DNA from: Clostridia bacterium
GTDB lineage: Bacteria; Bacillota; Clostridia; UMGS1883
NCBI GenBank assembly: GCA_017414645.1
Contig: JAFQLL010000049.1
Coordinates: 32,769 to 96,768 of the forward strand
Direction: 5' to 3'
Length of the DNA stretch: 64,000 nt
Position numbers: made by a program. Position 1 is the first letter of the stretch; each line of letters begins with the position of its first letter. Below, one piece after another: positions 15,001-18,000 of the stretch.

Positions 15001-18000
15001 CCGCGCAGAAAGCCTTGGTATAAAGGGCTCTTGCAGTGTGGTGGCATTAAGGGGCATTTCAGCCTTTGTAGGTGCCGACATTGTGGCAGGGCTTAATTGT
15101 CTTGAAGCTGATGAAGAAAGGTACAATATTCTTGTGGACCTTGGAACAAACGCAGAGGTTGTGCTTTATTCTAAAAACAAGCTTTACTGCACAGCGGCAG
15201 CTGCAGGTCCTTGCTTTGAAGGCGTTAACATATCCTGCGGTATGAGCGCAACAAAGGGCGCAATATATTCCTGCACGGAAAACACCTTTCTTACAATAGG
15301 CGGAGGTGAGGCAAAGGGCATTTGCGCCACAGGGCTTATCGATGTAATTGCCCTTATGCTTGAAGGCGAATATATGGACGAAACAGGCTTTCTTGAGGAA
15401 AGCTTTGAAATAACAGACAATGTTAAAGTAACAGGCGAGGATGTAAGGCAGTTTCAGCTTGCAAAGTCCGCCATCTGCTCGGCAATATATGCGCTTGTTA
15501 AAAAGGCCGCTACAAGCTTTGAATGTGTTGACAAGGTTTATGTGTCGGGTGGCTTTTCCTCTAAAATGAACGTTGGCAATGCCTTAAGGCTTGGACTTTT
15601 GCCCATGGAAGCAAAGGGCAAAATATATCCCTTGGACAACAGCTGCCTTAAAGGCCTTTGTGAATACGCCCAAGGAAGAAACAGTGTAGAACCTCTATTG
15701 GTAAATGCCGAATATGTTGACCTGGCAAAGGATAGCTACTTCGGAGAGCAATTTATAGAAAATATGATGTTTTAACATAAAAACCGTAAGGGCTGCCCCT
15801 TACGGTTTTGCATTAATCTTCAGTTATTTCGAAAAGCTCATTTGGCGTGCAGTTGAACAAAAGACAGAGTGTTTCGATGTTTTCATAGCGGATTGATTTG
15901 GTTTCGTTGTTAACCATTTTGCTGAAATTCTGATAGCTCATACCAAGCTGCTTATATAACCAGTATTTTGTTTTACCGTTCTTTTCCAATAGCTCCAATA
16001 CTCTTAATTTAATCATAAGATATTTCTCCATAACTTATATTTTAATGAGATAATATCTTAATTTTTCTCTTTACATATAGACTAATACATTATATAATGA
16101 AAAAGTCTATAGGGAGATGGTGCTGTGATAAAGATTTCTTATACTCCGGGAAATGAAGGGAAAGATTGCTTAGGTAACGGGTTGCATACTGGTGAATTTG
16201 GAGACATAATAGAGTGTTGCTGTGATGAATGTAATTATCTGATGTGCTGTACCAATTTTGGTGGATTTCCCGAATGTGATATTTGTGAAGATGAAAAATG
16301 CCCGCGAGCAAATCAAAAATAACCCTGTTGCGTACGCAACAGGGTTATTTCATTACTTATTCCTTATTCACTATTACTTATTACCTTACAAAATAACACT
16401 GTTATTTTGTGCCCGTGCTTCCGAAGCCGCCTTCGCCGCGAACTGTGTCGGATAATTCATCCACTTCAATGAAGTTTGCTGTAAGGAAGGGGGCAATTAC
16501 CATCTGGGCAATTCTTTCTCCGTGTTCAATAGTCTGCGCCATGGTGCCGTGGTTATGAAGTGCAACCATAACCTCGCCACGATAGTCGGCATCAACAACA
16601 CCAACTTTATTTGCAGGGGCAAGGTTTCTTTTAGATGCAAGACCGCTTCTTGCATAGATAAGCCCTGCGTAGCCAACGGGCACCTCAAGGGCAAGCCCTG
16701 TTTTTATGAGCACCGTTGCATGAGGCTCAATTGTAACACTTTCGTCAAGGCATGCATACAAATCGCAGCCTGCGGCATATTCGCTTCCGTAGGTGGGAAT
16801 TGTTGCCTTGGGGTTAAGCTTTTTTATGTTTACGTTTGTCATTGTGGAATATTCTCCTTTGGGGTTTTTAGATTACTTTGATCTGGGAGCACTGCAACAA
16901 TTTTTCATTCACCGCAGCCGCAACAGTCAATACTGCCGCCTGCAATGTCCTTTCGGTCGATGTTGGCTTCCTCGCCCCAAAGAACCAGCGTGTCTGTTTT
17001 AAGGGACTGTTGTACATCGATAATGCGCTGATTGGAAGAGCCCTTGAAGCGAAGGGAAATGTCCTTCAGGCTTTCAACAAACTCGCCATCCACTAAAATG
17101 TCGATGTAAGAGAGCATTTCGTCTGTCACAGAGGCATCGCCAAGCTTTCCTGTAAGCATGTCGCTTTCGAAATTATAACCCGAGTAGCACCAAATGTCCT
17201 TTTCGGGGTAAAGCTCCTTTACCTTTTTAAGAAAAGGCACCAGTGAAGCCTGGTTGGAAGGCTCAAAGGGTTCACCGCCCAAGAGGGAAAGCCCGGAAAT
17301 GTAATCGGGAGCAAGAGCTGAGATAACCTCCTGCTGAACCTCCTCAGTGAATTCATTGCCATAGTTAAAGTCCCAGGTTTCGGGGTTAAAGCAACCCTTG
17401 CAATGATGTGTACAGCCCGAAACAAAAAGGGAAACTCGCACGCCAAGGCCATTTGCAATGTCGTGGTTTTTTATTGTAGCATAGTTCATTTTACAGCACC
17501 TCCATTACAGATGGAGAACGCGGGACTTGATTTCCTTTGTTTTGCCAACGTTCCAGAAGTTTTCGCCAAGGTAACCGCAGGTACGGCGTGTAACATTCAT
17601 TCTCTTCTGGTCCTTATTGTGGCAGGAGGGGCATTCCCACTCTAAATTATCGTTAATCATAATCTCGCCGTCATAGCCGCATTCGTGGCAATAGTCGCTC
17701 TTTGTGTTGAACTCGGCATACTGAATGTTGTCGTAAATAAACCTTACAAGCGTTTCGAGAGCGGGAAGATTGTGGCGCATGTTGGGAATTTCAATGTAGC
17801 TGATTGCGCCACCGGAGGAAATCTTCTGGAACTGGCTTTCAAACTCGAACTTACTAAATGCGTCGATATCCTCACGCACGTCAATGTGGTAGGAGTTTGT
17901 ATAGTAGCCTTTATCTGTAACATCTTCAATTGTTCCGAAGCGTTCCTTGTCGATGCGTGCAAAACGATAGCAGAGGCTTTCGGCAGGTGTGCCGTAAAGA

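Follow-up and report, generated by a model that had tools for sequence, protein, structure and literature searches.

Analysis of a 64,000-nucleotide stretch from a Clostridia bacterium genome (assembly GCA_017414645.1, contig JAFQLL010000049.1; hereafter the window, with positions counted from its first letter) identified a conserved two-gene cassette in which a gene for a 65-amino-acid, acidic, cysteine-rich protein is divergent to a gene for a small XRE-type helix-turn-helix (HTH) protein. The initial annotation of this sequence had drawn attention to the Cys-rich gene and noted the XRE gene only in passing, yet the latter is the other half of the cassette. We showed that the Cys-rich protein belongs to a large unannotated family of small acidic proteins restricted to Clostridia, and that its gate is modular, the same cargo being paired with nine unrelated HTH subtypes, with ribbon-helix-helix (RHH)-like proteins or with an RNA leader. 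We propose, with a probability of roughly 0.55, that this is a repressor-gated cassette whose product would contain two metal centres and act as a free-standing, conditionally dosed cytoplasmic effector. On the predictions set out below, we class the finding as a putative small metal-centre protein under a private repressor.

The Cys-rich gene occupies positions 16125-16322 of the plus strand and begins with a GTG codon. Its product, MIKISYTPGNEGKDCLGNGLHTGEFGDIIECCCDECNYLMCCTNFGGFPECDICEDEKCPRANQK, contains 10 Cys residues, has a net charge of -7 and was exactly as first reported. A longer reading frame was excluded by an in-frame TAG at 16110-16112, upstream of the GTG. The promoter, TTTACA-17 nt-TATAAT (16070-16098, plus strand; -35 box at 16070-16075, -10 box at 16093-16098), matched the sigma-70-type consensus at 11 of 12 positions in a promoter scan. 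A loose scan of this kind was non-significant alone (2 sites versus 3.3 expected in shuffles); the promoter was conserved nearly base for base in 12 other loci, 13 in all, where the proteins were only 50-70% identical. A ribosome-binding site (RBS), GGGAG, was read from the sequence at 16112-16116 (plus strand), 8 nt 5' of the GTG. At the other end of the gene, an intrinsic terminator hairpin with a 15-bp stem and a GUAC loop (16317-16350, strandless) overlaps the stop codon and had a predicted folding energy of -22.8 kcal/mol (z = -7.3), with none of 200 shuffled sequences equally stable. This hairpin sits between convergent genes and is flanked on both sides by A and T tracts, a symmetry suggesting that it is probably bidirectional and ends both the Cys-rich gene and the convergent dut gene (16402-16842, minus strand). 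The promoter, RBS with GTG start and terminator at the stop codon thus agreed with the initial annotation, and its description of a compact, strongly promoted, stand-alone transcription unit was supported. The ratio of non-synonymous to synonymous substitution rates (dN/dS) in the Cys-rich frame was 0.17 against a 95%-identical copy (L005) and 0.23 against a 68%-identical copy (L008). Conservation of the reading frame and of the Cys pattern in relatives had been singled out as the point to check; both were conserved, and with dN/dS of ~0.2 the frame is a real gene under purifying selection.

Searches for relatives greatly extended this picture. A word-index search returned only three clusters related to the Cys-rich protein, in which all ten Cys, H21, TPGN-G-DCLGNG and CPR were invariant. 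An exhaustive HMMER search gave 182 representatives at 50% identity, ranging from 51 to 156 amino acids, and a profile search matched 3,007 clusters at 90% identity, so that the proposed search for the Cys spacing in relatives found a motif shared by ~3,000 clusters. Membership of this family was missed by the initial annotation, which used the sequence alone. Cluster look-ups returned only proteins from metagenome-assembled genomes, and several members had no NCBI accession. Scanning species-representative genomes, one per species, gave at least 265 confirmed matches, from which 80 loci were retained; all 80 are from Clostridia (Oscillospiraceae, Ruminococcus, Acutalibacteraceae, Lachnospiraceae and Acetivibrio sp. 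MSJd-27). Copy number reaches 2-4 in several genomes, and the family was found mostly in gut and rumen samples. The family consensus is MIIDVTGxxLTPGNxGKDCxGNGxHxDxxGxxIECCCDECDYxxCC-x8-CxxCxDxxCPR, of which the window protein lacks the first four residues. One carrier, Monoglobus pectinilyticus, is cultured; its locus (L171; NZ_OY725741.1, 229932-230753) encodes WP_320691195.1, a 122-amino-acid protein comprising the Cys domain and a C-terminal extension, together with the divergent HTH protein WP_102366048.1. Acetivibrio sp. MSJd-27 (L064, L071) is a further cultured carrier. The Monoglobus record designated 'plasmid 17' is 286 kb long, non-mobilizable and contains housekeeping-type genes (feoB, ABC transporters).

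No existing annotation could be attached to the Cys domain. It had no match in Pfam, NCBIfam, PADLOC or PHROG (window protein and up to 133 members), and the window protein had zero Pfam matches even at E <= 10. Among the 120 best-scoring of the 3,007 clusters no Pfam domain was found, and the only name given in any source was 'hypothetical protein'; a homolog of assigned function, for which the initial annotation had suggested looking, was likewise not found, the relatives being 'hypothetical protein' or unnamed. A sequence-profile search of the PDB returned only LDL-receptor class A at E 0.07, which was treated as chance, a fold search gave no match, and a literature search by motif, accession numbers and keywords found nothing relevant to the family. 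The Cys pattern had been called unrecognised and unlike SCIFF, and no SCIFF, Pfam or NCBIfam model matched it. Precursors of the SCIFF/ranthipeptide type are likewise short Cys-rich peptides confined to Clostridia, but the gene described here lacks a neighbouring radical-SAM maturase, encodes another Cys pattern and has no NCBIfam match.

We examined residue conservation in 268 members aligned to the family profile. Four cysteines with the spacing C-x17-C-x2-C-x5-C form an obligatory set, Site A (C15, C33, C36 and C42; 99, 99, 99 and 97% conserved). An optional set, Site B, combines C41 (81% conserved) with C51, C54 and C59-P60 (75-77% for the three Cys). C41 co-occurred with C51, C54 and C59 (phi 0.75-0.79, Fisher p 1e-31 to 1e-34), and the adjacent C41 and C42 fall in separate sites, the former in Site B and the latter in Site A. 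The accessory residues C31 and C32 (87-88%) and H21 (75%) varied independently. Of the 181 members possessing the C-terminal module x8-C-x2-C-x4-C-P, 147 had exactly this 8/2/4 spacing followed by Pro, and approximately one-fifth of members are six-Cys short forms lacking the module. Conservation covered residues 6-42, including every core Cys, variability being confined to the tail and to the C42-C51 spacer. Within the conserved region, the non-ligand residues L6, P8, G9, N10, G12, G17, N18, G19, G26, I29, E30, D34, E35 and Y38 were 83-96% conserved, which argues for a defined fold and not a metallothionein-like thiolate sponge. By alignment, the ten Cys were shown to resolve into an invariant four-Cys unit, an optional four-Cys unit and two accessory Cys, set among strongly conserved Gly, Asn, Asp, Glu and Tyr positions, an arrangement that does not look like a thiol sponge.

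These two four-Cys units make it likely, in our judgement, that the Cys-rich protein binds metal, and we infer that it folds around two tetrahedral metal centres. Among the functional options listed in the initial annotation, a metal-binding, redox or iron-sulfur (Fe-S) mini-protein was thus retained as the best reading, on the strength of the invariant and the co-occurring units, and the metallothionein-like option was set aside in view of the conserved non-Cys residues. Arguing by analogy, we lean tentatively towards Fe-S over Zn, given how the Cys are spaced, the Cys-Pro ending, a size and acidity like those of ferredoxins and hosts that are strict anaerobes; Zn is equally defensible. A remote Cys followed by C-x2-C-x5-C is the [4Fe-4S] ligand spacing of FNR, WhiB-like proteins and endonuclease III/MutY. 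Site A (C15...C33-x2-C36-x5-C42) has the same spacing of the last three ligands in a small protein of anaerobic hosts, although there is no sequence homology to those proteins (no Pfam match at E <= 10) and no CRP or HhH domain. The WhiB-like arrangement C-Xn-C-x2-C-x5-C is present in the Cys-rich protein (C15-x17-C33-x2-C36-x5-C42, 97-99%), but a match to the Whib model of Pfam is lacking, as are the G[VI]WGG turn and a basic C-terminus, the protein being acidic. Clostridial 2x[4Fe-4S] ferredoxins are likewise ~55-65 amino acids long and strongly acidic, with at least 8 Cys in two four-Cys units and a Cys-Pro end. They differ in their motifs, C-x2-C-x2-C-x3-C-P as opposed to C-x2-C-x4-C-P and a remote Cys with C-x2-C-x5-C here, and we found no Fer4 Pfam match and nothing in the PDB sequence and fold searches. 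The spacing match to [4Fe-4S] proteins is a lead, not evidence of an Fe-S cluster.

The divergent gene (15813-16016, minus strand) encodes a 67-amino-acid XRE-type regulator and predicted repressor that matches PF13443 (HTH_26) with 50.6 bits against a cut-off of 22 (E 2.3e-13), in agreement with the XRE assignment first made. Its mechanical open reading frame extends to 16031; the start is probably the ATG at 16014-16016, which gives 67 amino acids and is preceded by the RBS GGAGA (16025-16029), and a 67-amino-acid regulator is called by gene callers in L001-L007. An HTH_26 gene lies ~95 bp away and divergent in three close homologs despite differing flanks, and a divergent regulator at 82-115 bp from the Cys-rich gene was found in 13 genome loci. 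In the window and L005-L007 the cassette is flanked by the RACo corrinoid cluster and dut-nrdG-nrdD, in L001-L004 by an RnfD-like gene and Mem_trans/GDSL/MadLM. The regulators of the window and its L001 ortholog are 91% identical, the Cys-rich cargos only 56%. Across 88 loci, a small divergent DNA-binding gene was the immediate upstream neighbour in 70 (~80%), and downstream neighbours were unconserved. Most of the remaining loci are at contig edges, have a frameshifted HTH gene (L084) or are of the RNA-leader type described below. Nine XRE regulator subtypes were confirmed as HTH_3, HTH_19, HTH_26 or HTH_31 and three further regulators are RHH-like, below Pfam cut-offs; all are bare 65-80-amino-acid DNA-binding domains without a sensor domain or conserved metal ligands. 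Since context outside the two-gene cassette is unconserved, the nearby nrdG is unrelated to the Cys-rich gene, as had been supposed.

Several further features of the cassette were recorded. Residues C51 and C56 of the regulator (LCLLFNCTPNEL, C-x4-C) are invariant in nine aligned orthologs and absent from other subtypes; they could form a redox or metal site at a dimer interface. The cassette (15801-16401) has a GC content of 33% versus 43.5% for the window, which is compatible with horizontal acquisition or with a short gene and long intergenic regions. In L025 (3633-4742), two near-identical tandem HTH genes flank a short-form Cys gene, and the same locus has an orphan HTH_26 gene with its operator, the cargo gone, adjoining a GAPDH gene. 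In L084 (1818-2036) the HTH_26 gene is split by a frameshift, with the operator and the Cys gene intact. Both loci show signs of cassette turnover.

Between the two genes, a palindrome, TAGACT-N4-CAT TATATA ATG-N4-AGTCTA (16078-16109, strandless), overlaps the -10 box and the likely transcription start. In 13 cassettes with the HTH subtype of the window, the intergenic DNA was conserved far beyond the proteins (CTTTACA TATAGACTAATACATTATATAATGTATTAGTCTATA). The palindrome arms changed symmetrically where they changed (GATTA/TAATC in L045, ATT/AAT in L013 and L051, TTTT/AAAA in L036), and the N4 and some arm positions co-varied in both arms. These symmetrical changes predict a site for a dimeric protein, and as the palindrome is mostly upstream of the expected transcription start it would act as DNA and not as RNA. 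The operator was unique within the window, with 0 occurrences expected by chance, and no wider regulon was found in the window, where the operator occurs once only. Each of the other regulator subtypes has its own near-consensus promoter and its own palindrome: TAGAGT..ACTCTA for subtype B, TAGATA..TATCTA for subtype E, two copies of CCATATATGG for subtype C and, just downstream of the -10 box, GGGACTAATATTAGTCC for subtype D. A small palindrome, AGATAATATCT (16048-16058, strandless), is located upstream of the regulator RBS, is conserved in the intergenic alignment and, together with 16016-24, makes up a 9-nt inverted repeat; possible roles for it are a second operator or a piece of the promoter region of the regulator itself.

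The pairing of regulator and cargo was then viewed from the regulator's side. In a reciprocal scan of 80 metagenome loci encoding HTH proteins 75-91% identical to the window regulator, the Cys-rich gene was present in only 20-23. Behind the same promoter and operator, 18 loci instead have a gene for a 50-amino-acid acidic helical protein (MEDYAKLYHLLFNAITDALEQ...), and others have a 77-81-amino-acid protein, a 71-amino-acid protein or a YpsA/SLOG protein (Pfam E 3.5e-23); loci with such alternative cargos include L100, L109, L139, L145, L148, L149, L160 and L165. The small alternative cargos (50, 71 and 77-81 amino acids) had no Pfam or NCBIfam match. In other loci of the scan the regulator is orphaned next to fucU. 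Cys cores were 0.69 identical between regulator types and 0.74 within them, whereas the regulators across types were 0.17 identical. The reciprocal scan, this comparison and the greater conservation of the regulator (91% vs 56%) argue that the regulators are interchangeable gates and that the Cys-rich protein has its own function.

In nine copies (~10%) there is no repressor gene, and a strong promoter of their own is instead followed by a 170-225-nt leader (L011:3788-3977, L012:3794-3977, L022:3759-3983, L026:3791-3983, L041:3784-3983, L058:290-496, L059:3779-3983, L072:3785-3983 and L087:3807-3977). All four copies in Oscillospiraceae SIG430 are in this set. All nine leaders were predicted to fold alike, into a long P1-P2-P3 rod with a conserved GGUAAAAAUG in the apical region, a linker containing a conserved UGCGUUUUU and a terminator hairpin with a U-tract directly 5' of the RBS. 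P1 was paired at 94.9%, and 7 of its 11 pairs showed compensatory changes. The covariation score of P1 was 0.50; shuffles gave 0.18, with none of 500 reaching the observed value, and sliding the partners gave 0.03-0.11. The 3' strand of P3 can pair with the linker instead, over 10-13 bp in eight of the nine leaders (P <= 0.009 each) and with co-varying sequences, so that the leader is a two-state element, and the conserved elements GGUAAAAAUG and UGCGUUUUU can themselves pair as an alternative helix. A pseudoknot between the leader internal loop and the linker was significant in only three of the nine leaders and was dropped. Rfam covariance models gave no match at gathering score on the nine leader loci and only noise at E <= 10. 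Taken by its predicted structure, the leader looks like an unclassified riboswitch or attenuator.

We propose that the near-consensus promoter of the window cassette would be blocked by a dimer of the 67-amino-acid XRE protein bound to the palindrome over the -10 box, the HTH protein thereby repressing the Cys-rich gene. The default state would be OFF, and a burst of expression would follow once repression was lifted. The product would then serve as a free-standing effector in the cytoplasm, for instance a redox, cluster or binding protein that bears a cofactor, and its dose would be under conditional control. It would not be a peptide precursor, and it would not be a partner dedicated to its regulator. 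We hold the cassette-and-repressor part of this proposal with high confidence. A small repressor that binds a palindrome over a strong promoter is an ordinary regulatory principle, and small bare-HTH cassettes are represented by restriction-modification C-proteins, the Aca repressors of anti-CRISPR operons and Cro/CI-type switches. The cassettes described here share with them a 65-80-amino-acid, sensor-less XRE domain, a palindromic operator over a strong promoter, a small cargo and the mixing and matching of regulator and cargo. They differ in being chromosomal, among housekeeping genes, and not on phages or plasmids, in their divergent orientation, and in a cargo that is a deeply conserved Cys family and not a restriction enzyme or known anti-CRISPR.

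A number of observations weigh against the proposal. The argument for repression draws on operator position and co-variation, and the regulator has no sensor domain, which leaves relief of repression unexplained. AlphaFold2 models of the Cys-rich protein were of moderate quality (pLDDT 67 and 66; 71-83 in the N-terminal core) and are too weak for fold assignment, and the fold search, as above, was empty. Many paralogs per genome are unusual for a simple housekeeping cofactor protein. Finally, one family member, P0071 (L089:618-1088), is a 156-amino-acid protein in which the Cys domain is joined to a C-terminal HTH_3 domain (E 5.5e-9), hinting at a closer functional tie than that of gate and cargo. 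No other fusion was seen; the contig measures 1.3 kb, the 600 bp upstream of the fusion gene contain no separate HTH gene, and P0071 may be a true one-component variant or an artefact of assembly.

Several other explanations were weighed against the proposed conditionally dosed effector. The one that fares best, a metallothionein-like sink, would make the Cys-rich protein a metal or thiol buffer, produced in bulk, that sequesters Zn, Cu or Cd or scavenges oxidants. It would account for a small, acidic product with 15% Cys in CCC and CC runs, made from a strong promoter under a divergent repressor, and the invariant and co-occurring Cys units support metal binding in general. SmtA/BmtA, with the divergent repressor SmtB, offers a precedent for a small Cys-rich protein gene divergent from its repressor gene, but there is no homology, SmtB is an ArsR/SmtB metal sensor whereas the regulators here are XRE or RHH-like, and non-Cys residues are strongly conserved here. 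In a metallothionein, conservation would be limited to Cys/His ligands; at least 14 non-ligand positions of this family are 83-96% conserved, P8, G9, N10, G12, G17, N18, G19, D34, E35 and Y38 among them. In addition, 133 members scanned at E <= 1 gave no Pfam metallothionein match, the regulators belong to many unrelated subtypes without conserved metal ligands, the same regulator also gates non-Cys cargos, and it is difficult to see why a buffer would need several separately gated paralogs in one genome. We therefore consider a sink improbable.

A sensor or anti-repressor subunit, in which the Cys-rich protein would bind its cognate HTH protein and modulate DNA binding according to its cluster or redox state, would amount to a split one-component regulator or a bistable switch. 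The acidity of the Cys-rich protein, the tight two-gene linkage in 70 of the 88 loci and the P0071 fusion, with no separate HTH gene upstream, speak for such a role, and a dedicated HTH partner or anti-repressor was initially favoured on the grounds of linkage and P0071. It was downgraded after the reciprocal scan and the identity comparison: Cys cores that are 69% identical pair with regulators that are 17% identical, with RHH-like proteins or with a protein-free RNA leader; the Cys-rich gene accompanies only 20-23 of 80 close HTH homologs; conservation is far higher in the regulator (91%) than in the cargo (56%); and the lone fusion is on a single 1.3-kb contig. MqsA-type antitoxins, in which a Zn-binding domain precedes an XRE HTH, have the same domain order as P0071, the only protein to which they are relevant, but its Cys domain has no MqsA/YgiT Pfam match, no toxin partner was found and the observation is a single one. 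Nor does the cassette resemble a type II toxin-antitoxin system, as its genes are divergent and its regulators are bare 65-80-amino-acid DNA-binding domains. A subunit of this kind appears decidedly improbable.

The logic of the cassette also matches that of acr-aca modules, and the Cys-rich protein might be a horizontally acquired, small acidic anti-defence or establishment protein under an Aca-like or C-protein-like HTH gate. The bare HTH repressor, the palindrome over a strong promoter, the varied small acidic cargos, a regulator more conserved than its cargo, the low GC content of the cassette (33% vs 43.5% for the window) and the duplication and decay of cassettes would all fit. However, the family is essentially absent from phages and plasmids: a search of 2.9 million viral contigs yielded 1 match, one of 50,697 phage records yielded none, and one of 72,556 plasmid records yielded 1, which lies on a Monoglobus replicon of 286 kb that is non-mobilizable. 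There was no PADLOC or PHROG match. Housekeeping genes flank the cassette, and synteny persists at 68% protein identity. The core, which is under purifying selection, shows a deep conservation not seen in arms-race proteins, and the orientation is divergent whereas acr-aca is an operon. We regard mobile anti-defence cargo as very unlikely.

The weakest alternative, a ribosomally synthesized and post-translationally modified peptide (RiPP) or bacteriocin precursor that would receive thioether, sactionine or disulfide modifications from enzymes with genes elsewhere and then be exported, was offered in the initial annotation and seems hardly credible: the peptide is small and Cys-rich in Clostridia, where SCIFF/ranthipeptide systems are common, and L048 lies downstream of a SPASM radical-SAM gene, but no maturase, protease or transporter was consistently linked in the 88 loci (in line with the lack of an adjacent radical-SAM or lanthipeptide maturase noted at the outset), the 5 loci that do have radical-SAM neighbours owe them to synteny in a single lineage, precursor models of NCBIfam and Pfam gave no match, conservation extends over the whole domain without a leader/core split or cleavage motif, neither a signal peptide (as first stated) nor a hydrophobic segment was found, and control is by private repressors or an RNA leader with no biosynthetic operon.

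Outside the cassette, the neighbours agreed with the initial description: downstream come dut, nrdG and nrdD, and on the other side a corrinoid methyltransferase/RACo cluster. The corrinoid-dependent methyltransferase cluster (11480-15775), directly upstream of the cassette, comprises genes for a 424-amino-acid protein, a B12-binding protein, a URO-D/MtaA-like methyltransferase and a RACo-type corrinoid activator; its linkage to the Cys-rich gene is absent from L001-L004. The mechanical nrdD open reading frame (17505-20012, minus strand) has a GTG start and 835 amino acids, with a low-complexity N-terminal extension of ~125 amino acids that is probably untranslated, the true start likely being the methionine of MKVIKRDGS.... 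A second small XRE protein of 81 amino acids (49761-50006, minus strand) is similar to regulator subtypes G and D, which control Cys-rich genes in other loci; its gene directly follows, on the same strand, a gene for a 474-amino-acid protein (50035-51459), and it has no Cys-rich partner.

In the sources searched, the protein family, its Cys architecture, the breadth of its interchangeable gates and the RNA leader are undescribed. In thousands of gut and rumen Clostridia this gene occurs once or several times, yet it has no name, no Pfam or NCBIfam model and no relative of solved structure, placing the family among the larger uncharacterised small-protein families of the human gut microbiome, and the Cys architecture points to a new metal-centre fold. 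The cassettes illustrate a plug-in wiring of small effector genes into Clostridial chromosomes, in which one cargo may have many gates and one gate many cargos. The operator/repressor pairs would provide ready-made orthogonal expression switches for Clostridia, with Monoglobus pectinilyticus a practical system for experiments on the cassette. The ligand of the leader, if there is one, would be the best clue to the role of the family. In a more ambitious and, we think, unlikely though conceivable version, the Cys-rich proteins would be a new class of small two-centre Fe-S protein acting as dose-controlled cytoplasmic effectors, and the leader a new riboswitch whose ligand is a family-wide physiological signal. 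Were this so, identifying the ligand would uncover a pathway of homeostasis or signalling, hitherto unknown, in anaerobes that are abundant in the gut.

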